A DNA stretch of 64,000 bases from an uncultured virus (IMG/VR IMGVR_UViG_3300026522_000846) (IMGVR_UViG_3300026522_000846); one strand, 5' to 3'; shown: positions 7,871-62,721, counted from the first letter of the stretch. Made by a program: numbers and translations. The notes: generated by a model from the sequence alone, not told the origin.

Positions 7871-9296
7871 GGGTATCCGCAATAAGTGGTTGAAACTCCG
7901 CTCTCACCGGATGGACGGCTTCCAACTCTCTAGTTGAAAATATCCCGTTTCATTACTTCGCGGTTCCTGATTCAATGATGGATAACTAGATACACAATGT
8001 TGCTATGTATCCCCGCCAGAGCCATCTCCACAGGCGTAAATTCCCGGCACCCTGTCGGTATTGTTAATAAGTATCTAAGCGGATTTAAGGATCCGTATTC
8101 CTTCGTTTCTGATATTGACTGCGGCATTTACGTCACGGTCGATTACTGTTCCGCAATCCGGGCAACGGTATGTCCGTACATTGAGCGGCATCTTCTGGCG
8201 GTGTCCGCAGCAACTGCACAGTTGTGAGGACGGATACCATTTATCGACCTGAACGAGCGGTTTCCCACGTTCCCGCAGTTTATAGGAAAGCATCGCCGTG
8301 AACATTCCGTATCCGTTATCGTTGGTCGCTTTGCCGTTTCCAAAGTCTTTGTTCGCCATCGCCCGGAGGTTCAGATCTTCGATACATACACCGTCATACC
8401 GATTGGCTATCTCAGTAGACCGCTTCTGCAAGAAGTCCTTCCTCTGGTTCGCTGTATGGCGGTACAGCTTTGCGACACGTTTCTGCGTTTTCAGAAAGCG
8501 GTTAGATTTCGGTTCGCCCTTACGAGAACCCTTCTTCTTTGCTAATTGCCTCTGTCGCCGTTTCAGAAGTTTCTGTGCTTTCCGATAGTAGTGTGGCATC
8601 TCGGCAGGATCACCGTTCGAATCCATGTACAGGCCATCAGATTTATAATCCAATCCGAGAAAACGGCTCGTATCTGGTACAAACGTTGAATCCGAGATCT
8701 CTGTCTTATACGTCACGCTGACATAATACTTTCCGTCCGGCTCACGGCTTATCGTGGCATAACAGACATGAAGGTTATCATTCCAATTCCGTTTGTCAGA
8801 GGATTTTATCCATCCGAGGCAGGGAAGTTTTACACGGCGCGATTCTACAGCGATTACCGTATTGTTTGTTGTCGTGTAGGACTGTCGTCCATGTTTGTTA
8901 TGGAACTTCGGATAACCGCCCTGTTTCTTGAAGAACCTGTCGTAAGAAGCACTTACCTGTCGGCAGGCATATTTTAATGCCTGGGAGTCCGCCTCTTTGA
9001 GCCACGGAAGATACTGCTTCATCTGTGGAAGTAGGTTCTGCATGGCATAATAGTTCAGATGTTCACCACGGCGTTTATAGACCTTCTGATTACGTTCAAG
9101 CATCTTGTTATAGACGTATCGACAATGGCCGAGCGTCTGGTTGATCGTCTGTTTTTGTGTATTGTTCGGATAAATACGCATCTTCCTGGCATGAACGATC
9201 TGCATAAAAACACCTCCTTTCAACCACTAATTGAGGAAACATGAGATAACAGCTTATTCGTGGTTTCTGTTTTTCAACCAGAAATTTCGGTTACCC
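7871..9296 (-). mobile_element. tnpB-carrying element bounded by imperfect 25-bp inverted repeats
   Basis: 7871-7895 GGGTATCCGCAATAAGTGGTTGAAA versus the reverse complement of 9272-9296 GGGTAACCGAAATTTCTGGTTGAAA (20/25); both flanks are broken genes. Confidence 0.65.
8075..9223 (-). CDS. tnpB: RNA-guided endonuclease TnpB (start probably MQIVH)
   Basis: N-terminal RIYPN...GHCRYVYN; RuvC GLDY, IEDL and DRDVNAA; zinc ribbon. Confidence 0.93.
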   Translation of the reverse strand: MKGGVFMQIVHARKMRIYPNNTQKQTINQTLGHCRYVYNKMLERNQKVYKRRGEHLNYYAMQNLLPQMKQYLPWLKEADSQALKYACRQVSASYDRFFKKQGGYPKFHNKHGRQSYTTTNNTVIAVESRRVKLPCLGWIKSSDKRNWNDNLHVCYATISREPDGKYYVSVTYKTEISDSTFVPDTSRFLGLDYKSDGLYMDSNGDPAEMPHYYRKAQKLLKRRQRQLAKKKGSRKGEPKSNRFLKTQKRVAKLYRHTANQRKDFLQKRSTEIANRYDGVCIEDLNLRAMANKDFGNGKATNDNGYGMFTAMLSYKLRERGKPLVQVDKWYPSSQLCSCCGHRQKMPLNVRTYRCPDCGTVIDRDVNAAVNIRNEGIRILKSA

Positions 9297-12829: not shown

Positions 12830-14443
12830 AAGATGTAGCGTCAGACACCCACGACTTTAGTCGCGGGAGGAGACGCACCTCCTTTCTATGAGTAAATGTT
12901 TTGCAGGGTTAACAAATTTGAGTTTTTTATAACTGATACCTGCATTTATTTTTGTTCCATCAAGCGTACGCACATCCATGTATCCGGCAGAACGTCTTCC
13001 GAAGATAAAGCACTCCGTACTGTTACATTTGACTTTATCGAACAGTCTGAAGCCTTTAATCTCGTGTTCTGCCTGATTGCGTTTACGGATGCTGCCCTTT
13101 AGTGTCTTGACCTTATGTATTTGCCTGTTGTGGCATCGCACCTTCTTACAGAAGAACCATTCACCAGCGGGTTCTACGTCAGGGTGACCGCTTATACACC
13201 TTGCATCAATGCGGTGATCTTTCGGCAAATCACATTGCTTACGCTTTTCAGCCGTCTTATAACCGTACGTCATGTGGAGCGGGATACCGAGTGCTTTGAG
13301 CCTGTTCCAGACAGCCCATCTCATGATGCCCATGAACGAAGCATCCTGCATAGTCTTTATCTTTGTGTCAGGTCTCATGACCTCGGATTTTCTGCCAGTA
13401 AGAGTTCCTGCGTGGTATGCCTTGTGGCAGTCAGCACAGACGGTTATAAGATTTGCCGGCATATCCGTACCGCCATCCTTGCGTTGCTTTTTGTGGTGTA
13501 CCTGTAGTTGAACGTGTTCTGCACCGCATACGGCACACTTATAACCATCACGCCATTTAACATAAGCTTTGATATTATCAAAGCCTTCTGCTTCCCCATG
13601 CTGATAGTCAGTTCCCGAAGGAGTCTTCATACCAAGGATGTCTGCCTTCAGTTTCTGCGTATCAAAAGGTGCCATCTCAATCGTTATAGTTGTTACAGGG
13701 AGTATCCTACATACATCCTTTACGACTTTAACGTGTGTATCGCACTTTGCCTGAACAGATGGGGCAAGCCATCCTTTCTGCTTGCTATGGACACGGTTCT
13801 GAAAACGTGGCTTCCTGTAACGTGTCTTTCTGCTACGTCTGCTACGCCGTGTTTCTCTCCTAGCCATGAGCAACTTACTGATATCCTGTCTTAAATCTAC
13901 TTGTGCAGAAAGCAGCTCTTTCCTTTCAGTTGTAGCAGATAGACCGATATGCTTACTTCCTGCATCAACGCCAAGGCTTACGGGCTGTGTGTGTTTCCCG
14001 CTGTCGTATGTAAGCCGTATCGTAAACGGATCACGTCTGACAACAACTGCCTTGCCATCCTTTAGAAGATGTCTTACCTTCCCATACCGTTTGGTTGGCA
14101 TGAGAGGGTTTCCATCCTTATCTAATACATAAACCATAAGTTACCTTTCTACTGTACTTAAACAGTAAGCCTTACTACAGTCTTACATTCTGAATTTCAG
14201 ATGTAAAAACCATATCAGTTGTCACACCTTCGCCAATGTTAGAAATGCTTTCCGTACTCGGTCATCTTGGGTTGACTGCGGTTTACCCTCTCACCGCTGT
14301 TTACAGGGCCCGCACAGAGCCGTAGGTTAGGTGCTACGCCCACGGGTGTGATAACATATCTAACGTAGCCTTTATTTCAAGGCTTAGGCTAGTCAATGGA
14401 GCTTTTGATTACAAGCTCGTGACTTTAGTCATGGGTCATTGAC
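12830..14443 (-). mobile_element. IscB (IS200/IS605-superfamily) element
   Basis: Begins GTCAATGACCCATGACTAAAGTCACGAG; ends with the hairpin CCCGCGACTAAAGTCGTGGG just before the lepB ATG. Confidence 0.85.
12857..14137 (-). CDS. iscB: RNA-guided endonuclease IscB
   Basis: PLMP N-terminus, RuvC-I GVDAG, Arg-rich bridge helix, HNH VHH...NLITVCADCH, RuvC-III HRIDA. Confidence 0.95.
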   Translation of the reverse strand: MVYVLDKDGNPLMPTKRYGKVRHLLKDGKAVVVRRDPFTIRLTYDSGKHTQPVSLGVDAGSKHIGLSATTERKELLSAQVDLRQDISKLLMARRETRRSRRSRKTRYRKPRFQNRVHSKQKGWLAPSVQAKCDTHVKVVKDVCRILPVTTITIEMAPFDTQKLKADILGMKTPSGTDYQHGEAEGFDNIKAYVKWRDGYKCAVCGAEHVQLQVHHKKQRKDGGTDMPANLITVCADCHKAYHAGTLTGRKSEVMRPDTKIKTMQDASFMGIMRWAVWNRLKALGIPLHMTYGYKTAEKRKQCDLPKDHRIDARCISGHPDVEPAGEWFFCKKVRCHNRQIHKVKTLKGSIRKRNQAEHEIKGFRLFDKVKCNSTECFIFGRRSAGYMDVRTLDGTKINAGISYKKLKFVNPAKHLLIERRCVSSRD

Positions 14444-14460
14444 TAGAGCAAAGCACACTA
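14150..14460 (-). ncRNA. IscB omegaRNA (HEARO-like); guide about 14444-14460
   Basis: About 300 nt non-coding upstream of iscB with GTCAA...TTGACTAGCCTAAG...CTACGTT...AACATTGGCGAAG, typical of HEARO RNAs. Confidence 0.82.
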
Positions 14461-16639: not shown

Positions 16640-17149
16640 CTATTCAGATGTTAACAGCCACACGCAGATGACGGGGTCTTGTGCATTGTCAAAGAATGAC
16701 CAATAGCCGTCACAATAAGTATCTGCATAGATATAATGCCCCTTGACACAGATAAAGGCGTCATCTTCCAAATTGGCAAGGTAGTCCTGAAGAGTCGGGC
16801 GTTCATTCCGCTTAAAATACAGCTTCTTTTTGACAGGGAAAAACTTCCTTACCATACGGTTGAACCCATCCAAGGACAGATAGCCATCATCTTTTAATTC
16901 ATCGGAATAATATTTGCCAACATCTGTGTACCGCTTTTCAATATGGTGGCGACTCTCTGCATCATAAGCATTGCGTGGAACGATTCTTCCGGAGCAGGCG
17001 ATAAATCGCCTGATTCTTTCAGAATCGTTCCTAGGAAAGGGACTAAAGTCCCTTTCCATAGCACACGCCATGGCAGTCACGCTACATGGCGTTCCAACCA
17101 AACAATTATCAGGGGTAATTCTCCAACAATGCACTTCCTTATCTGCCAC
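16640..17149 (-). CDS. Hypothetical protein with an in-frame A+C insert; start affected by the IS607 end
   Basis: CSVTAMACA...GHYIY; the GTG start is supplied by the IS end. Confidence 0.6.
   Translation of the reverse strand: MADKEVHCWRITPDNCLVGTPCSVTAMACAMERDFSPFPRNDSERIRRFIACSGRIVPRNAYDAESRHHIEKRYTDVGKYYSDELKDDGYLSLDGFNRMVRKFFPVKKKLYFKRNERPTLQDYLANLEDDAFICVKGHYIYADTYCDGYWSFFDNAQDPVICVWLLTSE
16975..17059. repeat. Family-A element with a nested 30-nt family-C module
   Basis: CAGGCGATAAATCGCCTG hairpin inside the first A hairpin. Confidence 0.88.
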
Positions 17150-17328
17150 TCAAAATATGTTTAAATATACTCAAACACATCGAGAATTGAAATCCTTGCG
17201 GATACTTCTTACTGCTTCAATGTGTATGTTTTGGCGATTATAAACAATACGCTACTCACAAGTTCGTGTACACTCCACAGTCGTAAATTCCTGCGATAGC
17301 CCGCAGTACATACTTACATTTGCGTTTA

Positions 17329-18489
17329 TTATGCAATTGTGTAAGTTAAAGCATCTCTTAGATTAAGAGCAGCATTGAAATCCCTATCCTCAACATAGCC
17401 ACAATCACAACGATATATTCTATCTGAAAGTTTCAAATCTTTCTTGATAGCACCACAGCAATGACATATTTTGGATGATGGATACCATCTGTCTACGACT
17501 CTTAATTCAATACCATTTTCATCACATTTTGCTTTAAGTTTGGTTCTAAATTCATAGAACTTCTGTGACGCAACAGCTTTTGAAAGATGTCTGTTCTTCA
17601 TCATTCCTGATACATTCAAATCTTCAATAATTATGTAAGATGGTTTGGTTTTTACTATCTCAGCTATTGTCTTATTTAAATAATCAGTACGAATATTATC
17701 CATTTTATGATAAAGTTTTTGTACTTTGAGCTTTTGCTTTTGTATATTCTTTTGAGTGGACTCTCCTTTCTTTAAATTTTCATATTTTCGTGAGAGACAT
17801 CTTTGCTCTCTACGCAGTTTCTTTTCTAATTTTTTAATTCTTGCTGACTTATTGATATTTTTATAAGTTTTACCATTGGAAACAATTGCAAAGTCTTTTA
17901 AACCCAAGTCAATTCCTATACCACCATTGCTATTATTAGCAATCTTAGTGTCTGGAATTTCTACAAGAACTGACACATAGTATCTGCCCGCTTTGATAGA
18001 TACTGTACCGCTTTTAATTTTCCATCCGTCTTTAGTTGTTGGTATATAACCTTTTTCTTTAATGCGTACCCAGCCTAAAGTTGGTATGTTCAGTCTGTGT
18101 CTTTCACATCGGCAATCCTTTGGATTATTCTTTACAAAATACATTTTCACATCAGATTTCCCTTTCTTTTTAAACTTTGGAAAAGCACTCTGATGTTTGA
18201 AAAATCTTGTAAATGCAACGCAACCATTTTCAATTGAGCGTTTTACAGATTTTGAGCTGACTTCCTTAATCCATAATTTATCTGGATTTCTTGGAAGGTA
18301 TTCGTTGTTCAGCCAGACACTAAAGCTTTTACCACTCATAAACTTTTCACCATCATCGTGTAAAGTTTTGTTGTGGTCGAGATAAAAGTTATAGACGTAC
18401 CTACAGGTGCCAATAGTCTTGTTAATTTTGATTTTTTGCTCGGCTGTCGGATTTATTTCCGTCTTGAAGCTCTTTAGCAATTTCTGCAT
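17329..18489 (-). CDS. tnpB: RNA-guided endonuclease TnpB (IS607 type)
   Basis: RuvC GIDLG, IEDL and DRDFNAA; zinc ribbon; more AT-rich than its flanks. Confidence 0.93.
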   Translation of the reverse strand: MQKLLKSFKTEINPTAEQKIKINKTIGTCRYVYNFYLDHNKTLHDDGEKFMSGKSFSVWLNNEYLPRNPDKLWIKEVSSKSVKRSIENGCVAFTRFFKHQSAFPKFKKKGKSDVKMYFVKNNPKDCRCERHRLNIPTLGWVRIKEKGYIPTTKDGWKIKSGTVSIKAGRYYVSVLVEIPDTKIANNSNGGIGIDLGLKDFAIVSNGKTYKNINKSARIKKLEKKLRREQRCLSRKYENLKKGESTQKNIQKQKLKVQKLYHKMDNIRTDYLNKTIAEIVKTKPSYIIIEDLNVSGMMKNRHLSKAVASQKFYEFRTKLKAKCDENGIELRVVDRWYPSSKICHCCGAIKKDLKLSDRIYRCDCGYVEDRDFNAALNLRDALTYTIA

Positions 18490-18587: not shown

Positions 18588-19520
18588 TTAAGAGCGAACC
18601 TTGTTCCACACAACTACAAAAATAAATACCAGTACCCCAAACAGAGCGATGACTTTGGTCATCGTTGAAACCTTTCTGACGGGTTCGGACTGTACCGTAA
18701 CGTCAGGCTTTTTCTCCTTATCCTTTATGACTGTCTTTTTAGGAGCTGCCGTTTTCCGTTTATAATTCTCCGCTCTGACATCGCCATCAGTCTCCAATGT
18801 GCTGTCTGTCGCATTATGCTGTCTTAACAGCTTCTCGCCGTCACCCTTCAGCCAGTCAAGACTTCCTGCACAGGCTGTCAGTCCGTAAGTCCCGCCCGCC
18901 ACAGGCTCTATTCTTTCCTGATAACAGAGATTACCGCCATTGAATCCATTCGAGACCGTATATACCGTAATGTCATAATCGTTGAAATAACTGTCGGCAG
19001 GTATCTGTATCGTTCCCTTACATACATTATTCTCCCTGTCGTAGTCGCCAAGGTGTGAGAACGTATATGTGAATTTAACGCCTGACTTCCGATGAGTAAA
19101 CGAAACAAGGGTATCGCTTGAATCAAACAGGTCAGAGTCGGGATCTAAAAACATGGTAAATCCGATATTAGCTCTGTCATCGTTCAATATCGGAAGCTGT
19201 TTTAAGTCAACGTCCATATCCTCATGGAAATTTGTCGAGTTGAGACCGTACTTTGAAAACTCATTCTGGTCTACCCCAACACCTTCCGCTAATGGAACGA
19301 ACCCTTGGTTCATTCCTAGCGCAGTAATGGTTTTTGAAGAGAACGATATAGAGAGCGTTGTAAGAACGGCAACTGCACAAAGGATAATTTCTGACCCTTT
19401 GCGCAGCAAAGGGTCAGCATTAAAGTTCGTAGAACGAATTTCTGAGCCTTTGCGAAGCAAAGACGAAGAGTTAAAGTTCGTAGAACGAACGTTGGGAACG
19501 ATATGCTTAAACTTTCTCAT
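18588..19520 (-). CDS. Secreted, C-terminally anchored protein with repeat-derived N-terminal inserts
   Basis: Signal-like hydrophobic stretch and C-terminal TM helix; two B units and one half-A unit in frame. Confidence 0.75.
   Translation of the reverse strand: MRKFKHIVPNVRSTNFNSSSLLRKGSEIRSTNFNADPLLRKGSEIILCAVAVLTTLSISFSSKTITALGMNQGFVPLAEGVGVDQNEFSKYGLNSTNFHEDMDVDLKQLPILNDDRANIGFTMFLDPDSDLFDSSDTLVSFTHRKSGVKFTYTFSHLGDYDRENNVCKGTIQIPADSYFNDYDITVYTVSNGFNGGNLCYQERIEPVAGGTYGLTACAGSLDWLKGDGEKLLRQHNATDSTLETDGDVRAENYKRKTAAPKKTVIKDKEKKPDVTVQSEPVRKVSTMTKVIALFGVLVFIFVVVWNKVRS
19292..19318. repeat. Family-A single hairpin (27-nt in-frame insert)
   Basis: ATGGAACGAACCCTTGGTTCATTCCTA. Confidence 0.8.
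19390..19491. repeat. Two tandem 51-nt family-B units
   Basis: TCTGA..CTTTGC...GCAAAG......TTAAAGTTCGTAGAACGAA twice; encodes RSTNFN...LLRKGSEI twice. Confidence 0.9.
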
Positions 19521-20200: not shown

Positions 20201-21604
20201 TCAAACCTCACTATTGTTAAAGAATTCATCAGGCAGGTCTACATCGCCGTCATCAGCCTCATCCTCATCATCAGCACCAAAGTCGTCTTCATCATCATTG
20301 TCATCTTCGGTTTCTGCTGATTCTTCATGCTCCGGTGACGACGTCTCCTGCTTTGGAGCGTCAGGGAATGGTGCTTCAGGACTATGCACAGGATTAATAG
20401 GTGCAGATTCAGGCTCGTTATTTGGCTCTTCTGAAGCAGTCGATTCATCGCTTGATTCTTTTGAATCAGGCGATTCATTCTCTGCCCCTGTCTCTGTCTC
20501 CGTCTCTGTCTTGGCTGACTCGGCAGGTTCAGATGTTTCGCTGACCGACTCTTCAGGAGCTGTTTCAGGAACTGTTTCGGGAGTTGTTTCAACTGGAACG
20601 ATTCTTTCAGAATCGTTCCCGGGAATGGATCGCGGATCCATTCCATTAGATGCTGTTTCTGCCTTTTCTGTATTCTCTGCATTTTCTGCATTTTCTTCTG
20701 GTTTTACAGTTTCTGTCGGCTCGACAGTTTCTGTTATTGCCTTAAAGTCAGCCGTTCCGTTTAAGATAGCTCCGGGGTGTACCTCGACTGTTCCAAGAGC
20801 ATTTATTCTTCCTGAAATATTAGCGGTCTTATATATCACAAGCTTTTCGTCAGATGTAAGGTCGCCCTCAAACTTACCGTAGATATATATGCGTTTTCCG
20901 TGAATGTTTCCCTTTGCACACGCATCCTCGGAAAGGATTATCGACTTATCAGAAACAATGTTTCCTTCGATCAGTGCCTTTCCGATATAGAGATTGTGGC
21001 AGGAAATCGTTCCGTTTATCTCGGAGTCGATCCTTGCGTTCTTCTCTGTGATCTCTACATTTACGTTTTCACCCTTTATGACAAATCCGCTTGTCATGAT
21101 GGTCTTTATCTTGTCAATGGCAGTAGTGTGTGTCTTTACCGGTGTTAATGTTGCACTTGGTGTTACTGTCATATCTTTCTCTTTTCTATTGGGAATGACT
21201 GTTCCAATTGTTCCATTAGGAGCGACATTCTGTACGCTTTCAGGCATCTTTGCCATCTTCGCTCTTTCCGCCCTCTCTCTTAACATCTTCTCTCGTGCTA
21301 CGCGAATGGCATTTCGTCTTTCGTCCTCTGACATCCGGTTCATTCCATTTTCAAGGCAAGAGCTTTTATCAATTCCACCATTACCATAATCAGTTGAGCC
21401 ATTGTTTCCTTCGGTCTCAAACGGATTCTTACTCATGTTTAATTCAGGTCTTAATTCTGCTGAATTGTCAGTATCATTTGGTACATTGTTCAGGTTTACA
21501 TCCATCTCTGTAATGGGTGTCGAACCCTCTGACCTTGCAGCATTACTGAAGTCCATCATGCCGTTGTTATTGATGTTGTTTACAAACGCCTTCATACCAC
21601 TCAT
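20201..21604 (-). CDS. Bactofilin (polymer-forming cytoskeletal) domain protein with disordered tails
   Basis: Beta-helix repeats IEGNIVS / AKGNIHG / FEGDLTS / ISGRINA / ILNGT; acidic tail. Confidence 0.75.
   Translation of the reverse strand: MSGMKAFVNNINNNGMMDFSNAARSEGSTPITEMDVNLNNVPNDTDNSAELRPELNMSKNPFETEGNNGSTDYGNGGIDKSSCLENGMNRMSEDERRNAIRVAREKMLRERAERAKMAKMPESVQNVAPNGTIGTVIPNRKEKDMTVTPSATLTPVKTHTTAIDKIKTIMTSGFVIKGENVNVEITEKNARIDSEINGTISCHNLYIGKALIEGNIVSDKSIILSEDACAKGNIHGKRIYIYGKFEGDLTSDEKLVIYKTANISGRINALGTVEVHPGAILNGTADFKAITETVEPTETVKPEENAENAENTEKAETASNGMDPRSIPGNDSERIVPVETTPETVPETAPEESVSETSEPAESAKTETETETGAENESPDSKESSDESTASEEPNNEPESAPINPVHSPEAPFPDAPKQETSSPEHEESAETEDDNDDEDDFGADDEDEADDGDVDLPDEFFNNSEV
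20593..20646. repeat. Family-A element with a CCCGGG junction, in frame
   Basis: Encodes NGMDPRSIPGNDSERIVP. Confidence 0.88.
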
Positions 21605-28028: not shown

Positions 28029-28166
28029 TTGAAACGATTCTAACGAATCAAGCGATTTATCGCTTGATATGGCAGAATCGCCCCTAGAAATAATCACAAA
28101 ACAACCCATCTCATGGAGTGAACCTTTTGTTCACTCCTAGGAACGGTTCCTTCAGAACCGTTCCAT
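28029..28166. repeat. Degenerate A+C element followed by a full family-A element (28113-28166)
   Basis: Perfect 9-nt direct repeat CCATCTCAT at 28106-28114 and 28163-28171. Confidence 0.88.
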
Positions 28167-28406: not shown

Positions 28407-28999
28407 TATTCTTCTTCTCCTATTATGCTGTTAAACAGGTCTAATGCATTTACTGGCGTGGACGATAGTTCACGCCTAGGAACGGGAACCGTTCCACTCA
28501 CTGGCTTGGATCCGTGATCCGAGACATTTGGCGTGGACTCCTGTTCACGCTTTGTTTCATGACACAACGGTTTATCCTCTTCGTTTTCGCGTAGCGATGA
28601 CGAAGAGTTAAAGTTCGTAGAACAAACATCTGTCTTTTTGGTGTGGTGTTTGACTTCACCTTCAGGGACAGTCGTTTCAACCGTTCCTAAAAGTTTCAGG
28701 CAGTATTCCCACAATCCCTTTCGAAGCAAAAGACGCACAACTGATGAACGCCGTCTTGCGTCAAAAGAGGACAGGAATTCGGTCTGCTCATCAGTAAGAG
28801 TTATCCAATAAATCTTCTTTGCATCTTTCGGCACTCTTGCCTCAAGGTCAACGACCGGCATCTGCACAGACTGTCCTGACAAATATGCGTCCAAAACATT
28901 ACGGCACAAGGCTGTCGGCGTGGGACTTCTCAAATTATGGAACAGGCATATCAGATCCCAGTCCTCCGTTATGTTTAAGCTCAAACGAAAGCTAGCCAT
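28406..28999 (-). CDS. Putative ParR-like adaptor with a repeat-derived C-terminal tail
   Basis: Immediately downstream of parM; two possible RHH-like segments. Confidence 0.55.
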   Translation of the reverse strand: MASFRLSLNITEDWDLICLFHNLRSPTPTALCRNVLDAYLSGQSVQMPVVDLEARVPKDAKKIYWITLTDEQTEFLSSFDARRRSSVVRLLLRKGLWEYCLKLLGTVETTVPEGEVKHHTKKTDVCSTNFNSSSSLRENEEDKPLCHETKREQESTPNVSDHGSKPVSGTVPVPRRELSSTPVNALDLFNSIIGEEE

Positions 29000-37894: not shown

Positions 37895-37906
37895 TGAGAT
37901 GAAAAA

Positions 37907-37957
37907 CGTTCGCTCTACGAGCTTTAACTCTGAATCTTTGCAAGGCAAAGATTCAGA
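37907..37957. repeat. Family-B unit, intergenic, possibly acting as a terminator
   Basis: GTTCGCTCTACGAGCTTTAACTCTGAATCTTTGCAAGGCAAAGATTCAGA. Confidence 0.85.
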
Positions 37958-38071: not shown

Positions 38072-39058
38072 ATGAACTATTGTATGACAGGACTCAACGA
38101 GTATGGACTTATGGCTGTTGCAGGAACAGTCAAGGAGGTAAAGGATAACGTCGTTACCCTTACCGTAACTGAAAACATGAAGCAGGCTGATGGCAAATGG
38201 GCTGACGTACAGCGCACCATAGAGTGCGATGTTACAAAGGCAGGCGGAGCAGACGGCGTTGAAAAGGGCATGGACTTCTGTGCTCTCGGACACGGCATTC
38301 CCACAGAGGGTGGAAACATGGAGATGACCGCAAAGGCTTTCGGTACAGGCAATTGCAGAATTGAGGTAACAGAGCAGGGAACAGGACGTTCCAAGACTCC
38401 CGATGGCAAATGGGAAGAGAAGAAAGCACCGTATGTTTTCGGAATGGTAATGGGTGACGCACTCTATCAGACAGGCTCTACAAAGAACGGAGCGGATATG
38501 CTTACCGCCCAGTTCCATATTGAAGAACCTTATGAGCATGACGGTGAGACAGAGAATGTTCTTGTTTCCGATAAGGTAAAGTTCATGGCAAGAAGCGATG
38601 AAGCATCCAAGGCACAGTTCAACAGATATGTAAACTGCCTTGAAAAGGCTTGCGATAAGGCAGGTCTTGAGATGGCAACAGGAGCACAGCATAAGTTCGA
38701 ACGTCATCCGTTCAAGTCTGTATTCGTGTTCCGTGAGGATGCTGAAAAGTATAAGGCAAATAGGTTTGCACAGATACAGTCCTTTACCGCAGAAGAGGGC
38801 GTTAATCAGGGAAATACATATTATTACCGTTCCGAGTTCATGTATAGACCTGACTTTGCAAACTTTGGACGCCCGGACATAGAAGCGATAAAAGCGAGAG
38901 AAGAGAGCGTCAAGGCTTATAACGACGATAAGACTATCGAGGAAACACCTGTAGAGAGCAAGGACGGTTTCGTTCCCGCTACCCACGAGGTAGAAGACCT
39001 CTTCGATCCGAGCATTAATCCATTTGAGGTTCCCGGCATGGACTATAGCGATAAATAA
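38072..39058 (+). CDS. Hypothetical protein, possibly an OB-fold ssDNA-binding protein
   Basis: Beta-rich with an acidic tail EDLFDPSINPF; function inferred only. Confidence 0.6.
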   Translation: MNYCMTGLNEYGLMAVAGTVKEVKDNVVTLTVTENMKQADGKWADVQRTIECDVTKAGGADGVEKGMDFCALGHGIPTEGGNMEMTAKAFGTGNCRIEVTEQGTGRSKTPDGKWEEKKAPYVFGMVMGDALYQTGSTKNGADMLTAQFHIEEPYEHDGETENVLVSDKVKFMARSDEASKAQFNRYVNCLEKACDKAGLEMATGAQHKFERHPFKSVFVFREDAEKYKANRFAQIQSFTAEEGVNQGNTYYYRSEFMYRPDFANFGRPDIEAIKAREESVKAYNDDKTIEETPVESKDGFVPATHEVEDLFDPSINPFEVPGMDYSDK

Positions 39059-39282
39059 TGGAAAGGGGCTAAAGCCCCTTTCCTAGGAACGAATGTTTTA
39101 CATTCGTTCCATTTAATGGAACGAACCAAGGGTTCGTTCCTAGGAACGGTTCTTTTAGAACCGTTCCATTTAATGGCGTGGATCGTAGATCCATGCCTAG
39201 GAGTGATGCTTTGCATCACTCCATTTAATGGAAAGGGGCTTTAGCCCCTTTCCTAGGAACGAATGTTTTACATTCGTTCCAT
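39058..39282. repeat. Tandem array of four family-A elements (eight hairpins)
   Basis: Units 39058-39112, 39116-39169, 39173-39224 and 39228-39282, each separated by TTA. Confidence 0.96.
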
Positions 39283-39415: not shown

Positions 39416-41020
39416 ATGCTTGATGAAGATAAATATTACATGAATTGGGAGGAATTCAAGAACAGTGCTGATGACGTTCAGAAGCTTTTTCCAATAAGAG
39501 ATGTACTGTCGGTGCATTTTGGTTTAACACCACAGCATAATGGGCGTTGTTCGTGTCCTATCCATCAGGGAAATGACGCTAATCTTGCCATTTATCCCGA
39601 ATCCAATACCGTTCACTGTTTCAGCCATTGTAACAAATCATGGAACGCTATCACACTTGTTCAGGAAGACTTCAAGAATAACGGCTGTTCCGAGGGTTCG
39701 TACAAAAAGGCTCTTTTTACATTGTGTGACGAGTTCGGTGTCGATCCGCTCACTCTTCCGGGAATAAGCGAAAAGAAATACTCTCACGTCGTTGAACCCA
39801 AACCAAAACCGAAAGAACCCGAAAAAACGGAACTTGAAAAGGCGTTTACTCATAAAACGATCGTTCGTCATAACCAATGGTTCTTCAATGAAAAAAGCCT
39901 TGAAATGGATCATGCGAATGTGAAAGAGATAGTTCCCCTGTGGCAGAAACTTCTCAATTTCTCCAGAAACCCTTTTGAACCCATAATAACAGGATGTGAA
40001 AAGGACGAGCGAGGACAGAAAAGAATAGCGAAAAAGCCTCCGCTTCCCATACAGAAAACGGCAGCGTTTATCTGCTATCAGCTTCAGGTAAAAGCAAAAG
40101 AGTTACAGAGAGCAAAAAATATTCTTGAATGGCTCGCCAATGAATCGTTCGGCTACGAGTTCGAAAACTTATACAAGCCGTATCAAAAACTTTATTCATT
40201 AGCTCTTGCACAGCATCCTGCAAAACTTTCGGAAGAAGATGTACGGTTTATGAAGTTGAATTTCCTGATGTCCGATCGGGAAATTGAAAAAGAGGACCGT
40301 CTGCTCACGCTTTTTCAGATTTATGACGAGTTTCAGGACTATCTTGAACGTGTACCCTATACATACAAGATGAAAGACGTTCCAAAAGACTTTCCGTCAT
40401 ATTTTACCCCGGAATTCAAAGACCTGATAAACACTATCAAATCAAGTGAGTATTTGGAAAAGATAATTCCCATTTATGTGCCTGATGAGGGCGATTTAGC
40501 AGAAGATCCGAGACCGGGAAGTGATAAAAAAGTAATCGCTGACGTAACAAAATGGATAGATGAACTTTGTACGATAAGCGACTATGTCTTTGATTTGGGT
40601 ATCAAGTTGAAAGATTCGTTGCGAGAATATTTTGATTATCGAGATTATGCAAAAAAGAAAAAACTCGGCATCAAAGATGTAGATATAAATGTAGAGTCGA
40701 ATTGTTTTGATATTATGGGATTTCCCGAAGTTAAAGATATGGCTGAAGACGTACAAGAATTTATATATCAGTTTATGACGGCAAAGGACGGTCCTCTGAA
40801 TATATTTCAGGATAAATTAGTGAAAGCCATGAAAGCCGAAGAAAAGAAGTTGCAGGAATATTATAGCAAGGTTCAGTCAGCGGAACAAAGCAAAGATACA
40901 GAGTTAACGACCGAAAGTCGAACGTCTGAACCTTTGCAGGGCAAAGGTTCAGCATTAAAGACTGCAAGTCGAATTTCTGAACCTTCGCATAGTGATGACT
41001 CACTCGAAGAAGAAAGGTGA
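39416..41020 (+). CDS. CHC2 zinc-finger (primase N-terminal-like) domain protein
   Basis: CPIH...HCFSHC; no TOPRIM domain recognised. Confidence 0.75.
   Translation: MLDEDKYYMNWEEFKNSADDVQKLFPIRDVLSVHFGLTPQHNGRCSCPIHQGNDANLAIYPESNTVHCFSHCNKSWNAITLVQEDFKNNGCSEGSYKKALFTLCDEFGVDPLTLPGISEKKYSHVVEPKPKPKEPEKTELEKAFTHKTIVRHNQWFFNEKSLEMDHANVKEIVPLWQKLLNFSRNPFEPIITGCEKDERGQKRIAKKPPLPIQKTAAFICYQLQVKAKELQRAKNILEWLANESFGYEFENLYKPYQKLYSLALAQHPAKLSEEDVRFMKLNFLMSDREIEKEDRLLTLFQIYDEFQDYLERVPYTYKMKDVPKDFPSYFTPEFKDLINTIKSSEYLEKIIPIYVPDEGDLAEDPRPGSDKKVIADVTKWIDELCTISDYVFDLGIKLKDSLREYFDYRDYAKKKKLGIKDVDINVESNCFDIMGFPEVKDMAEDVQEFIYQFMTAKDGPLNIFQDKLVKAMKAEEKKLQEYYSKVQSAEQSKDTELTTESRTSEPLQGKGSALKTASRISEPSHSDDSLEEER
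40890..41002. repeat. About two tandem family-B units in frame at the C-terminus
   Basis: TCTGAACCTTTGCAGGGCAAAGGTTCAGCATTAAAGACTGCAAGTCGAATT. Confidence 0.82.
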
Positions 41021-42201
41021 ATTTTATGAGTATATACGAAAAGAAAATCAACGAGACCGTGGTAGAACTTAATCGAAGAGTGGACAAAATAATGGCACTT
41101 AAGAGCGAGTATAACTATTCCGAACTTATTTCGGGTATGAACCCGCTCCTTATTCAGCAGCAGACACAGTTACTTGACAGGCTAAAACTTGCAAAAGAGA
41201 CCGACAGTAACGGTGTGGGATATTTCCTTAATTACGGAGATTTTTCAGCATTTCTTCAGCGGTTCGACCTTTTTGACAGACTGTCAACAGGACTCAAAGA
41301 GGCAGCGACAAGAATAATCGAGATAGAGAATATGGTTCAGGACACGAACAAATTCATTCTTTCGAGCAGAGCCTTTCTGCCAACGGCAAATCAGAAACTT
41401 CTTCCTGAACATACAGAGCTTTATAATATGTCTGTTGACTACTTAAGGAAAGCACCGTGCATTCAGTCCTATAAACGTGCGAATATGAGGCAGAACATCA
41501 TAGAAGAAGCACTCATGGACTTGGATCACGATGATATAGATAAGGCCATAAAGAAGAAACTGATACACCCTGACGAGATCAGGGATATGAGCCATGTAAT
41601 AGACGTTACAGGCAAGAGAGCAAAGAATTTTGAAGAAAATCTGCGATATGCAAGGGAGCTGCTCGGACTTGTAAAAAAGGATGTTCCGTATAAGGAAGTC
41701 CATACAAAACTAAAGGGAACAACATTTACAAACGATGAGACCGGCATAGAGCGTCAGGAACTTCTGAAAGAACTCGAAGAGTATGCAAACTCGAACAAGC
41801 CTGTTTATCTGAACCTTGAGATGACGACCTTTAATAACAAGCCTGCTTGCAAAGTATTCTGGGGATATATAAACCCTGACCGTACAACGACTATCAATCA
41901 GATAGGTTGGCTTGACGCAACACTTGCAGGAGAAATAAGCACAGCGTATGGTGATAAAAAGATACCTGTCATATTTGACGGTGTAACAGGTGGCGGTGTT
42001 GACAGGAACGGACAGACGATAAACAGGGGTTGTAACATCACACTCCGTCTGCCAAGCACTCCATCGAAAGAGAAAGCCACTGACAAGCCGGTGTCAGAGT
42101 TAAAAGACGAGGTTCAACCTGCAGTTTCAAAAGAAGTTTCTAATACTCCGACTGTAGAAAATGCAAAAGAAAATGTGACTGAAGAAAGAGGGAAAGTATG
42201 A
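41017..42201 (+). CDS. Hypothetical protein with a HIRAN-like C-terminal domain
   Basis: TKLKGTTFTN...RQELL...QIGWL pattern. Confidence 0.6.
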   Translation: MNFMSIYEKKINETVVELNRRVDKIMALKSEYNYSELISGMNPLLIQQQTQLLDRLKLAKETDSNGVGYFLNYGDFSAFLQRFDLFDRLSTGLKEAATRIIEIENMVQDTNKFILSSRAFLPTANQKLLPEHTELYNMSVDYLRKAPCIQSYKRANMRQNIIEEALMDLDHDDIDKAIKKKLIHPDEIRDMSHVIDVTGKRAKNFEENLRYARELLGLVKKDVPYKEVHTKLKGTTFTNDETGIERQELLKELEEYANSNKPVYLNLEMTTFNNKPACKVFWGYINPDRTTTINQIGWLDATLAGEISTAYGDKKIPVIFDGVTGGGVDRNGQTINRGCNITLRLPSTPSKEKATDKPVSELKDEVQPAVSKEVSNTPTVENAKENVTEERGKV

Positions 42202-42890
42202 TCTATGCGATCGTTGGAAAAACATCTTCGGGAAAGGACACCATCGCCAAGCACCTGTCTTGGCGGTGGAACATCCCAATAGTCTGTTCTGCCACCACAC
42301 GTCCTATGCGGAAGTATGAAACCAATGGAAAAGAGCATTGGTTCGTGACAAAAGAGAAAATGGCAGAACTGAAAAACAGTCCTCATGTTATCGCTTATAC
42401 CAAAATGCCTTATACGGGAATCGAGTATGCTGCAACGACAGACATGGTGAATGGAATGGTTCTGAAAGAATCAGGCGATTTATCGCCTGCTTCGAGAGAA
42501 TCAGGCGATTTATCGTTTGATTCGGAAGAACCATTCCTAGGAGTGAACCAAAGGTTCACTCCATTAAAAAATAAAGACATGATATATATCATCAATCCCG
42601 AAGGCATTCGATGGTTCAAAGAGAATGGTACAAAGGATATGCCGATGGTTTCTATTTTCGTTGACCTGCCAGAGACTCTGATCGTTGACCGTGCCATTAA
42701 GCGTGGCGATAATTTCTCCGACATTATGGACAGGTTGGCTTCGGAAAGCAAAGAGATGAACCGATTTCGGGATGAAAAGGAATACGACTATCTGATCGAT
42801 AATTCAGGAACATTGTCTGACAGTCTGCGTCATGCAGATGAAATCGTGGAAACGCTTCATCAGAAAAAAGAATTAGATTTGGAAAGATAA
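42198..42890 (+). CDS. Guanylate kinase-like protein with a 39-aa repeat-derived insert
   Basis: GKTSSGKDT and TTRPMRKYETNGKEHWF. Confidence 0.82.
   Translation: MIYAIVGKTSSGKDTIAKHLSWRWNIPIVCSATTRPMRKYETNGKEHWFVTKEKMAELKNSPHVIAYTKMPYTGIEYAATTDMVNGMVLKESGDLSPASRESGDLSFDSEEPFLGVNQRFTPLKNKDMIYIINPEGIRWFKENGTKDMPMVSIFVDLPETLIVDRAIKRGDNFSDIMDRLASESKEMNRFRDEKEYDYLIDNSGTLSDSLRHADEIVETLHQKKELDLER
42451..42564. repeat. Family-A element with two nested 30-nt family-C modules
   Basis: 114 nt = 54 + 30 + 30. Confidence 0.9.
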
Positions 42891-42896
42891 AAACAT

Positions 42897-43793
42897 ATGA
42901 GAAGAAAAACATCAAAAAGAACAAAAATCAACATTGTCACCACTCTCCTTGTAGCACTTGTACTTGTTGGAGTGCGTGGAACGAAGTGGAATAGTGTTAG
43001 AAGTGGTAAGAGTCCTCATTCTTACGGAGTAGTACGAGATGTTAATCAAACATCAGAGACAAAGCAGAGTTCTACCGAGGTTAATCCCGCGAACTCTAAT
43101 GCCGAATTTTCGCTTGACGATATACCAAAGTACACATCCACTCCATCTGATGGAACGGTTCCAAAAGAACCGTTCCTAGGAGTGGATCGCAGATCCACTC
43201 CATCCGTTTCCGTAAATTCCAATGAACCTTATTTCACCAAGGAAGATATCGAAAAGGCAAAAACATCTTACGAATCGTATGGTGAGCATGACAGTCTCGG
43301 CAGATGTACGACCTGTATTGCTTCGATAGGGAAAGACCTTATGCCGACAGGTCCTCGTGGTGAGATAGGTATGATAAGGCCGACAGGTTGGCATACCGTG
43401 AAATACAAAAATGTAGAAGGGAACGATTGTTCCAATCGTTCCAATGGGCATTATCTTTATAACCGCTGTCATCTTATCGGCTATCAGTTGACAGGGGAGA
43501 ATGCAAACAATAAGAACCTTATCACGGGAACAAGATATATGAACGTAGAAGGTATGGAACCTTATGAAAACAATACGGCATCTTATGTGAGACAGACGGG
43601 TAATCATGTTCTCTACCGTGTGACGCCTGTTTTCTCGGGGAACGATCTTCTTGCACAAGGCGTACTCATGGAAGCGGAATCTGTTGAGGATAATGGTGCA
43701 GGATTAAAGTTCTGTGTGTTCTGCTACAATGTTCAGCCAAGCATAGAGATAAACTATACTGATGGAAGCAGTAAGGGAGAAGTCTATGAATAA
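42897..43793 (+). CDS. Membrane-anchored DNA/RNA non-specific endonuclease (EndA-like)
   Basis: DSLGRC, RPTGW, YNRCHLIG, NLITGT..MN and YRVTP; two repeat inserts. Confidence 0.88.
   Translation: MRRKTSKRTKINIVTTLLVALVLVGVRGTKWNSVRSGKSPHSYGVVRDVNQTSETKQSSTEVNPANSNAEFSLDDIPKYTSTPSDGTVPKEPFLGVDRRSTPSVSVNSNEPYFTKEDIEKAKTSYESYGEHDSLGRCTTCIASIGKDLMPTGPRGEIGMIRPTGWHTVKYKNVEGNDCSNRSNGHYLYNRCHLIGYQLTGENANNKNLITGTRYMNVEGMEPYENNTASYVRQTGNHVLYRVTPVFSGNDLLAQGVLMEAESVEDNGAGLKFCVFCYNVQPSIEINYTDGSSKGEVYE
43150..43203. repeat. Family-A element in frame
   Basis: 12-nt direct repeat ATCCACTCCATC at the junctions. Confidence 0.92.
43420..43442. repeat. Family-A single hairpin (27-nt in-frame insert)
   Basis: GGAACGATTGTTCCAATCGTTCC. 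Confidence 0.8.
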
Positions 43794-44159: not shown

Positions 44160-45527
44160 TTGCGAAACGACACCACGCCACTCAACGAACTGTCCGTCAG
44201 AAAGTCAAACGAGATGGTCTCTGCAAAGTACAAAAGCACTTTGCTTGAAAATCAGATCATGACTATCGCCCTGACACGGATAGAAGAAAGTGCAAGAGAT
44301 AAAAACGCACCGTTAACGGCAACATTATATCCGGGCGAACTGAAGCGTATTATCGGAGATCCCACACATATTTACCGTACCCTGAAGTCGGTCTCAAAGA
44401 CTATGGTAGGGCATACCATGTTTCTGGAGGACAGACAGGGGAATTTCCATGCTTATGCTATCGTAACGGATGCTGAATATCAGGACGGTGTGTTCCGTGT
44501 CAAATTCAATGAAAGTTTGAGAGATCATATCCTCGGACTGGAAAAGAACTATACGACTTATGAACTGTCCGTGCTGACCGATTTCAAAAGCAATTCCTCG
44601 TTCCGACTGTATGAACTTCTGAAAAAAGAGATATACAAAAGCAGAAAGAGCGTAAACAATGGCAGGGTAGATGTAGAATATCGTATCTCTGAACTTCGAT
44701 TTATGATAGGACTTGCAAATTCGGATGATGCCGGTGTAAAGAACGCCATGGGGCGTATGGGTGAGAACATTGACTGGGATAAGCTTTACAGTCTCCTTGA
44801 CAAGAAAGACAAGAAGTATGAAGCGTGGAAAGACATGAGGAGATATGTAATCGAGCCTGCCCAAATAGAGCTTGAAGAAAAGTCAAACGTAAGGTTTGAT
44901 TTTGACACATACAGAAGCGGTCGGAAGATAGACAGGATAGTTTTTCATGTCTATCCGAACGTACCGAAGAACCCTGAAATAATAAGCAGAAAACAGCGAA
45001 TAATCGAGAAACAGGCGAGACAGCTTGAAATACCAAGAGACCTGCCTGAATATCGCTCTCTGTATGCGGAATATACAGGGCATAATGGATTAACGGAAGA
45101 AGATATAAACCTGCTTATAGAGAGAGCGGAGGGTTGTGCTGATAACGAAACGACACGAAGTATAGTCCTGACGGTAAAGAATGCGATAGAACTTTGTGAC
45201 AAACAGGGTTCGATACAGAATTATATGGGTTGGATCATTCGTTGTATAGAGCGTGGCGGGTACAAAACGACCGAAACGATATATGGCTCAAAGGAGCGTG
45301 CCGAGGTCGTGAATACCGCAGAACAGGACTTGAAAACCAAAGACCTTGCGTCAGTATTCTGGAACAGAACAAAGGCAAGAAACGGACAGAAATTTCAGGA
45401 ATTCACGCAAATGCTTGCTGATAACGGTCTGACGCTTGAACTCTTTGAGGGAGCATGCGAAAGCGATGCCGAATGCGGAGAGCGTTATGTGGCATGGATC
45501 AAAGGCGAGTTGAGGTCGATACTGTGA
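44160..45527 (+). CDS. repB: Rep_3-family plasmid replication initiator
   Basis: VRKSNEMVSAKY.STLLENQI, SSFRLYELLK, RRYVIEPAQIEL and GRKIDRIVF. Confidence 0.88.
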   Translation: MRNDTTPLNELSVRKSNEMVSAKYKSTLLENQIMTIALTRIEESARDKNAPLTATLYPGELKRIIGDPTHIYRTLKSVSKTMVGHTMFLEDRQGNFHAYAIVTDAEYQDGVFRVKFNESLRDHILGLEKNYTTYELSVLTDFKSNSSFRLYELLKKEIYKSRKSVNNGRVDVEYRISELRFMIGLANSDDAGVKNAMGRMGENIDWDKLYSLLDKKDKKYEAWKDMRRYVIEPAQIELEEKSNVRFDFDTYRSGRKIDRIVFHVYPNVPKNPEIISRKQRIIEKQARQLEIPRDLPEYRSLYAEYTGHNGLTEEDINLLIERAEGCADNETTRSIVLTVKNAIELCDKQGSIQNYMGWIIRCIERGGYKTTETIYGSKERAEVVNTAEQDLKTKDLASVFWNRTKARNGQKFQEFTQMLADNGLTLELFEGACESDAECGERYVAWIKGELRSIL

Positions 45528-57305: not shown

Positions 57306-57464
57306 AAGTCCTTTTCCTCTAAAACCAAGTTGGTTTTTCCCATTTCTATAATTTTTTATGCATAAAAATAAAAAAATGTAGAGAGCGAATATTGCAGAAC
57401 AGCGAATTATTTTTTACTCATAAATTAAATAGAGTAGCGTGAAACATCAAGCAACTTGTTGCTT

Positions 57465-57546
57465 ACTTCGGAGTCTTTGCTCTGCAAAGACTCCGCGTTA
57501 AAGTTCGTAGAACGAACTTCGGTAGCATCATCCCTAGGAAAGGATT
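57465..57546. repeat. Family-B unit plus a family-A remnant in a 5' UTR
   Basis: ACTTCGG direct repeat at 57465 and 57516 (period 51); CCTAGGAAAGGA supplies an RBS-like sequence. Confidence 0.85.
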
Positions 57547-62626: not shown

Positions 62627-62721
62627 TAAACTTGAAACCAACTTGGAACTAACTTTGGACTAAGTTGGGACTAACTTGGAACGAATTGTGACCAGATTGT
62701 GACTAGATTGCGACTAGATTG
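62627..62721. repeat. About 8 degenerate 11-nt tandem repeats
   Basis: CCAACTTGGAA CTAACTTTGGA CTAAGTTGGGA CTAACTTGGAA ... CTAGATTGCGA. Confidence 0.7.

Follow-up and report, generated by a model that had tools for sequence, protein, structure and literature searches.

Nested palindromic repeats in frame in a guanylate kinase-like gene of a plasmid from bovine gut metagenomes

How a run of small palindromic repeats, some of them lying inside others, comes to occupy part of an enzyme gene is the question raised by a guanylate kinase-like gene in a stretch of 64,000 nucleotides (nt) of DNA from an uncultured virus (IMG/VR IMGVR_UViG_3300026522_000846; the whole stretch is referred to here as the window). 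The initial annotation, made from the sequence alone, had noticed two tandem 30-nt units (family C) in the first hairpin of a longer repeat (family A) at 42451-42564 (114 nt), and had proposed that existing hairpin loops are targeted hierarchically and filtered for preservation of the reading frame, with protein loops growing stepwise. The same object was recovered in the present analysis and measures 117 nt with its flanks; it is in frame, uses the one frame of its coding strand that is open (1 of 3), and adds 39 amino acids (aa) to the protein. It is probable, if only just, that the insert is repetitive DNA of a non-coding type which now lies within a gene and is simply translated, that it represents a long-hairpin variant of the A element and that the number of its C units has been set by slippage. 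The gene and the parts of the insert are as follows.

42198-42890, + strand: guanylate kinase-like gene, 230 aa, host of the insert (PF00625, phrog_1815, AlphaFold)
42450-42566, + strand: composite insert, 117 nt or 39 codons, residues 85-123, an A element whose hairpin 1 holds two C units
42453-42462, + strand: left arm of A hairpin 1, GGAATGGTTC, pairing with 42528-42537 in the predicted fold and followed by the loop TGAAA
42468-42497, + strand: C unit 1, a 26-nt hairpin followed by GAGA (sequence, motif scan)
42498-42527, + strand: C unit 2, a 26-nt hairpin followed by GGAA, with 2 mismatches to the 26-nt motif
42528-42537, + strand: right arm of A hairpin 1, GAACCATTCC, followed by TA (sequence, fold)
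42540-42562, + strand: A hairpin 2, 23 nt with a perfect 10-bp stem, joined to hairpin 1 through CCTAGG

The host protein is placed by profile and by predicted fold in the guanylate kinase family. Its match to PF00625 (E 6.2e-13, 49.3 bits against a cut-off of 25.2) covers residues 4-85 and ends where the insert begins, and its match to the guanylate kinase profile phrog_1815 (E 5e-35) falls into two stretches. The insert is flanked by AAT on the left and ATTA on the right, and each of its C units is bounded on both sides by TTC-N4/5-GAA. In the predicted fold, a hairpin of 85 nt, within which the two tandem palindromes cross-pair, precedes the 23-nt hairpin. The energy is -39.1 kcal/mol for DNA (z -10.7) and -70.4 kcal/mol for RNA (z -12.9), and none of 200 shuffles matched either value. 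No Rfam family matched the block (best E 0.075, far below the gathering scores), nor did any intein or intron family. Four sequencing runs were compared to the window, all as assembled contigs, and those of the RNA library among them (X2) are identical to the window over 42462-43179, both C units included. Since these contigs retain the block unspliced, there is no sign of its removal from RNA, with the reservation that contigs could miss a minor spliced form.

A position of the added residues in a loop had been suspected, and the structure prediction agrees with it, the insert being modelled as a low-confidence coil between confident core elements. In the AlphaFold model (20-sequence alignment; mean predicted local distance difference test, pLDDT, 80; predicted template modelling score, pTM, 0.76), the core lies mostly at pLDDT of about 85-97, while residues 86-124 fall below 50 (about 31-33) and form a coil without secondary structure between the strands 76-80 and 128-131. 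The model resembles solved guanylate kinases (6wct, 7luy and others) with E of about 1e-10 and template modelling (TM) scores of 0.58-0.75 among the matches listed, and in a sequence search of solved structures the matching splits into two stretches, one on either side of the insert.

Homologues of the kinase-like protein were obtained from a search of 5.8 billion proteins (64 sequences, 19 of them aligned with the query). Both C units are present in P0001 (99% identical) and exactly one in P0002-P0004 (91-92% identical), which are shorter by 10 residues (…KESGDLSPASEELFLG…); P0005 (86% identical) has NGTVLKEPFPGKGLSPFPLNGTVLKEPFPGANQGFTPL at the insert site, which reads, in the protein only, as the peptide of two tandem A elements. 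Four further A insertions of the window give peptides of the NGTVLKEPFLG type when translated. The empty form predicted in the initial annotation (TTDMV/KNKDMIYII) is matched by 14 of the 19 aligned homologues, which are all at most 64% identical and have an empty site of the form TTDMV.G-.DMIY, and a metagenome scan for kinase relatives recovered sequences at most 65% identical, all with the empty site. Pattern searches of species genomes and viral contigs found no relatives of the kinase gene. A live allelic series is present at one protein loop, which may be empty or may hold either two A elements or a single A element with one or with two C units; the alleles with an insert are 86-99% identical as proteins.

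Exact differences of unit size also occur at the DNA level. In the independent DNA run X12, one contig, which differs from the window at 38 positions over 41500-42563 (about 96% identity), is shorter by exactly 30 nt at 42467, and a second X12 contig skips exactly 57 nt (43148 to 43206), which correspond to the A element of the adjoining gene.

43149-43205, + strand: plain 57-nt A element, in frame in a DNA/RNA non-specific endonuclease gene, absent in the X12 relative

Therefore, A and C behave as discrete units between close relatives, and the adjoining gene shows an exact 57-nt presence and absence. Within 43136-43204, the endonuclease-gene element is preceded by 12 nt equal to its own last 12 (ATCCACTCCATC), and the element-free relative retains one copy; either the target resembled the end of the element or a footprint remained. 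No A module occurs in the 18 kb of a related plasmid contig (L017), whose Rep is 48% and whose kinase is 65% identical. The two sites make it possible to examine on a small plasmid how in-gene selfish DNA of the Rickettsia type inserts and how far an enzyme loop tolerates insertion.

The A module is a hairpin of 23-25 nt with the form GGAnnGnnnn-loop-nnnnCnnTCC; two modules meet at a CCTAGG junction, the pair has (A)AT and AT(T) as its flanks, and the net size per element is 57 nt. The window holds 48 such modules in 22 arrays, with 24 distinct stems, and 35 modules have perfect 10-bp stems; 23 of the 26 CCTAGG sites are module junctions, and the commonest loop among the 25-nt hairpins is TGAAA/TTTCA. 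In the 26 modules of 23 nt, 98.6% of the cells pair and 7 of the 10 pairs change on both sides. The stem covariation score is 0.576, a value that none of 500 shuffles attained (0.204 in shuffles). One of the intergenic arrays is composed of several elements.

39056-39282, no strand assigned: four tandem A elements, 8 hairpin modules, periods 57, 57 and 55, intergenic

Because 9 of the 22 arrays are intergenic in a window of which open reading frames (ORFs) cover about 91%, with 2 more arrays straddling ORF ends, the A family is not specialised for genes. The in-gene copies are those that preserve the frame. Among the 13 two-module arrays, nine are of 50 nt (57 with the 7-nt flank) and four of 49 nt; all four 49-nt arrays are intergenic, all three two-module arrays in long genes are of 50 nt, and the remaining six 50-nt arrays comprise one intergenic copy and five in ORFs of 65-129 aa, whose status is uncertain. 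ORFs of at least 169 aa hold six A arrays, every one in open frame. The filtering for frame preservation proposed earlier is supported by this division, and the statement that unit sizes are multiples of three is correct for the 57-nt and 30-nt steps and has to be modified for the 4 of 13 two-module arrays that measure 49 rather than 50 nt.

Most two-module arrays have the ends (A)ATGGA ... TCCAT(T), which are terminal inverted repeats; these are weak as evidence of a miniature inverted-repeat transposable element, since the whole A element is palindromic. Direct repeats at an offset of 57 measure 9, 9 and 12 nt in 3 of the 13 two-module arrays (CCAGTTAAT, CCATCTCAT and ATCCACTCCATC) and 3-7 nt in the others, and repeats of at least 9 nt were found at 21 of 2000 random control positions. 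They consist of the last bases of the element and about 7 flanking bases, a pattern that would fit a 7-bp target duplication at sites resembling the A element's own end; such a duplication would explain tandem arrays with a 57-nt period, e.g. 39056-39282.

In species genomes, the A pattern with its junction gave no stretch and the pattern without the junction gave nine, none with a TAGG junction, which are taken as chance matches or ordinary hairpins. In viral contigs, seven stretches were found, all on one IMG/VR contig and the only place with the TAGG junction; this contig is 99.8-99.9% identical to window positions 1-39524 and stops before the kinase gene. Prevotella and Segatella genomes have neither the kinase/endonuclease region nor A elements.

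Family C was scanned with its 26-nt hairpin, allowing up to 7 mismatches, in the window and in 13.7 kb of a sister contig (G002), i.e. in 77.7 kb of replicon. Six positions at four loci were obtained (16991; 20433 and 20463; 28045; 42468 and 42498), with none in each of 20 shuffles, and the strict pattern gave two chance-like matches in genomes and none in viral contigs. Apart from the kinase gene, the loci are as follows.

16977-17057, - strand: second nested composite, in a 169-aa ORF; 55-nt hairpin at 16977-17031 with one C unit and 24-nt hairpin at 17034-17057
28031-28084, no strand assigned: degenerate nested hairpin upstream of a helicase gene, its single C unit having a decayed A arm on either side
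20403-20488, - strand: decayed tandem of two to three C-like 30-nt units within the acidic tail of a bactofilin-domain protein, intact A arms being absent

The single nested copy and the degenerate copy reported earlier at 16975-17059 and 28029-28087 are both present, with the slightly different limits given above. The claim that C occurs only inside A elements is retained for three of the four window loci and fails for the C-like units at 20403-20488, which lie outside any intact A hairpin; a homologue search with the bactofilin-domain protein gave two matches, and this array may once have been located in an A hairpin. In one homologue of this protein, P0076 (80% identical to the product of 20201-21604, minus strand), an A element and about 16 more residues are absent, and an A-type hairpin peptide (VPGNDSERIVPV), which the window does not have there, lies beside the C-like array. 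On the sister contig, about 2.5 kb past the left end of the window (G002:C1:40401-40455; L076:401-455), there is an A hairpin with exactly 30 additional nt; this nested hairpin is of 25 + 30 nt, and compensatory changes separate its inner palindrome from C.

In the 169-aa ORF, the insert encodes 29 aa (87 nt) and is absent in 8 of 10 homologues, including P0067-P0069; three of the homologues without it are 83-89% identical over the aligned columns. The C unit is translated there as RIRRFIACSG and in the kinase gene as ESGDLSPASR; therefore, the conserved entity is the DNA palindrome and not the peptide. Over 55 nt, both loops included, identity between the nested hairpins at 42453 and 16977 is about 90%, although the two stand in opposite orientation relative to the CCTAGG junction. 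All four nested hairpins (three in the window, one on the sister contig) have arms of the GGAAyGrTTC class. Because of the identity of about 90% over 55 nt, descent of a long hairpin explains the association of C with A as well as repeated insertion does.

The favoured explanation may be stated as follows. The A element would be a modular palindromic mini-element that has multiplied on a rumen plasmid lineage, in intergenic DNA and also in genes wherever the frame and the stop codons permit it, presumably as selfish DNA and with the help of a moving enzyme. In the kinase gene, one A element would lie between the nucleotide-monophosphate-binding part and the next core strand, where it would be read as a disordered loop, and its hairpin 1 would be the long-hairpin variant that carries the 30-nt palindromic unit. 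This long hairpin most likely arose once or a few times, when a small palindrome entered the top of a TTC-loop-GAA hairpin, and would then have propagated as any other A module, the number of C units being changed by replication slippage or unequal exchange between TTC-N4-GAA junctions to give the one-unit and two-unit alleles. The two may be related by a slippage duplication or by a deletion, in either direction. One or few nesting events followed by spread with A are preferred because of the identity of about 90% between the two nested hairpins, the single arm class, the lack of an A-alone allele and the C array without arms.

Several points weigh against this explanation or limit it. An allele with A alone was not found at the kinase site or at the 169-aa-ORF site in the homologue alignments, and hence an order in which A came first and C later is not demonstrated. 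The two C units of the kinase gene differ at about 5 of 30 positions, so that a recent slippage duplication is not evident, and since TGAAA/TTTCA is the commonest loop, the loops shared by the nested hairpins are weaker evidence of common descent. The signal of target duplication is partial, being confined to 3 of 13 two-module arrays. The window ORFs were profile-scanned (74 in all, 45 of these also against PHROGs), and among the 74 there was no transposase able to move A elements and no Y1/HUH transposase; the transposon-type ORFs present are three TnpB-like and one IscB-like, none of which was seen flanked by A ends, and no other transposase was found among the scanned ORFs. The RNA-library contigs may stem from contaminating DNA, so that translation of the insert is inferred. 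Lastly, the conclusions rest on 77.7 kb of replicon only.

The 18-nt heart of the C unit was also followed in other genomes with the 18-mer 42473-42490, which was matched exactly in 90 species-genome stretches, 80 of them listed. Many of the listed loci (L084-L160) come from three metagenome-assembled genomes (MAGs) assigned to Chthoniobacteraceae (Verrucomicrobiota), Deferribacteres and a delta-proteobacterial lineage, in which the 18-mer forms hairpin 1 of repeats resembling Rfam Acido-Lenti-1 (29.6-46.3 bits, the gathering score of 37 being reached by the two best only); the insert block of the window did not match Acido-Lenti-1 (RF01687) at E up to 10. In Prevotella and Segatella, the 18-mer is the apex of an unrelated long hairpin repeat, an apex that varies among 18 copies in 3 genomes, and in Chloroflexota it is flanked by GTAG…CTAC. 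At least six paired flanking bases accompany 13 of 82 sites, against 2 of 322 control positions. A Lacrimispora terminator was considered as an insertion of the 18-mer and rejected, since all 8 orthologous loci compared have the hairpin, with point variants. Single matches of the 18-mer can be due to chance, as this native hairpin, conserved across the genus, illustrates, and the occurrence of the 18-mer across phyla is a lead provided by sequence matches. It is doubtful that the heart of C (18-20 nt) is a promiscuous mini-palindrome that moves between unrelated bacteria into the tops of pre-existing hairpins. If it were, its hosts would include the A hairpins, the Prevotella long repeat and hairpin 1 of the Acido-Lenti-1-like repeats, and unit sizes in multiples of three would build protein loops by ten and nineteen codons.

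The proposal of hierarchical loop targeting stands as regards nesting, in-frame growth and stepwise sizes, and the part of it that was not demonstrated is that C is a separate mobile family hitting A loops. In its full form, this serious rival holds that C is a mini-palindrome mobile in its own right, which lands in the tops of TTC-loop-GAA hairpins, each 30-nt unit being a separate insertion that recreates the target. Three of the four window C loci lie in A hairpin loops, which make up 0.28% of the window, the diverged 30-nt palindrome of the sister contig lies at the same place in a fourth nested hairpin, and each unit has TTC-N4/5-GAA boundaries on both sides. With respect to the partner hairpin, the asymmetric loop of C points in one direction at 42468 and in the other at 16991, and the 18-nt core is found in the 90 stretches against roughly 17 expected by rough arithmetic for a random 18-mer, and in the unrelated hairpin repeats of Prevotella/Segatella (apex) and of the three MAGs (hairpin 1). 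Against this, one origin with module spread suffices for two 55-nt hairpins that are about 90% alike, every nested case belongs to one arm class, and the flanking loop copies match at 2-3 of 4-5 positions outside TTC/GAA, so that a target duplication is not demonstrable. The Prevotella apex varies among the 18 copies in the manner of a decaying part of the long repeat, with no empty hairpin seen, the Lacrimispora match is native, and the array 20403-20488 has no intact host arms. Separate mobility of C is, on this evidence, a possibility to which we give a tentative place; loop targeting, if real, would imply a structure-specific insertion activity without a known enzyme.

The remaining alternatives are less probable. 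That the hairpins are selected functional structures (transcript stabilisers, terminators, pause or protein-binding sites, replication or partition sites), the in-gene copies being by-products, would suit the preservation of stem complementarity through many compensatory changes, the intergenic position of about half of the A arrays and the very stable RNA fold (-70.4 kcal/mol); it is nevertheless unlikely, as individual copies are missing in relatives without other change, the related plasmid has none, and copies occur in either orientation and in different frames. The stem mismatches (8 G:T or T:G, 4 A:C or C:A and 2 others, over both gene orientations) show no link of mismatch type to the transcribed strand in 13 mismatched modules, and no Rfam family accounts for the block. 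Selection of the 39 residues as an adaptive peptide module, for instance a linker or an interaction loop, appears very improbable: the ORF has remained open and several alleles keep the insert, but the same DNA units encode unrelated peptides elsewhere, the alleles differ by whole DNA units, one of them having a different repeat at the site, and the region is predicted to be unstructured. An artefact of assembling a repeat-rich metagenome, finally, could be suspected from the contigs of all four runs, which break at repeats, and from the spikes of depth over repeats. It is scarcely credible, given that contigs of X2 and X4, which overlap left-flank contigs, span both C units and differ from the window at 0 and 5 positions, that the X12 contig runs from the left flank through hairpin 2 with one C unit, and that proteins from other assemblies (P0001-P0005) contain inserts.

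By analogy, the kinase-gene insert appears to be a variant of selfish DNA of the Rickettsia palindromic element (RPE) type, new in its module size, its nesting, its plasmid setting and its allelic series. No description of the A family or of the 18-mer was found in full-text literature, a search that did not extend to subscription journals and supplements. RPEs, as summarised in PMC10969869 from Ogata et al. 2000, are of about 150 bp, occur in Rickettsia chromosomes without a known transposase, and are found in frame in unrelated genes, where they are read through and occupy sites considered tolerable for the fold of the protein. The A element shares with them, as far as this summary goes, a hairpin repeat without its own coding capacity, in-frame occurrence in unrelated ORFs and empty sites in homologues, and is set apart from the RPE description given there by a 57-nt unit of 23-25-nt modules, a rumen plasmid and nested 30-nt units.

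Other families of hairpin repeats offer partial parallels. REP/BIME/REPIN sequences are described in PMC3733652 as small hairpins in mosaics or doublets, mostly intergenic, with some inside ORFs and with covarying stems. The A elements resemble them in hairpin mosaics and doublets, covarying stems and occasional in-gene copies, and differ from the REP/REPIN-RAYT systems of that account in having TAGG/ATGG rather than GTAG or CGTC at the hairpin foot, a plasmid setting, no Y1 (RAYT) transposase in the scanned window ORFs and a far higher density (48 modules in 64 kb). The insertion sequences IS1397, ISKpn1, IS621 and ISPpu9/10, which target REP hairpins according to PMC1525189, are a precedent for an element landing in the palindrome of another repeat; those portrayed there are full insertion sequences with a transposase, unlike the gene-free 30-nt palindrome C. 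Yeast mitochondrial GC clusters, e.g. GC42, are GC-rich hairpins in AT-rich organelle DNA (PMC4478555). As in the GC clusters of that source, hairpins of tens of nucleotides, constrained stems, short target motifs and tandem arrays are found here. Paquin et al. are said to have described, in 2000, double-hairpin elements in Allomyces mitochondria, with which the A element would share the double hairpin as its unit. Unlike in the mitochondrial elements, as far as the reports found describe them, nested 30-nt units and a protein-loop allelic series occur in the present case. Pneumococcal BOX elements are modular (boxA-boxB(n)-boxC) and resemble the kinase-gene composite in having a middle module of variable copy number, with the difference that BOX elements are intergenic, larger and not hairpins nested in hairpins. 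They are named in PMC10969869.

The window is part of a plasmid, encoding a Rep_3 initiator, ParA, an actin-like partition protein and a CHC2 primase-like protein, along with several helicases and one C-5 methyltransferase (Pfam/PHROGs). The sequencing runs that contain it are mostly labelled bovine gut metagenome, and collections of phage and plasmid records gave no near match to it. The TnpB-like ORFs are located at 551-1678, 8075-9223 and 17329-18489 and have OrfB_IS605 and Cas12f1-like TNB domains, and a RAGATH-18 RNA (72 bits, 17209-17281) lies directly 3' of the third. A block of 1615 nt (12830-14444) is missing in an otherwise 99.9% identical IMG/VR contig; on its minus strand are the IscB-type ORF (RRXRR and HNH, 12857-14137) and a HEARO RNA (14218-14443, 109.8 bits), and an IscB/omega-RNA element appears to have been gained or lost here recently. 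Five tandem 11-nt units (AACTTGGAACT-like) at 62629-62690 are iteron-like and adjoin a ribbon-helix-helix ORF, far from the Rep_3 gene at 44160. A third repeat family (family B of the initial annotation), with a 51-nt period, consists of a CTGAnCCTTTGC…GCAAAGGnTCAG hairpin and a TTCGTAGAACGAA motif and is found at 19379-19515, 28586-28627, 37905-37956, 40882-40999 and 57457-57542; among the places where it lies in frame is the C-terminal tail of the primase-like protein.

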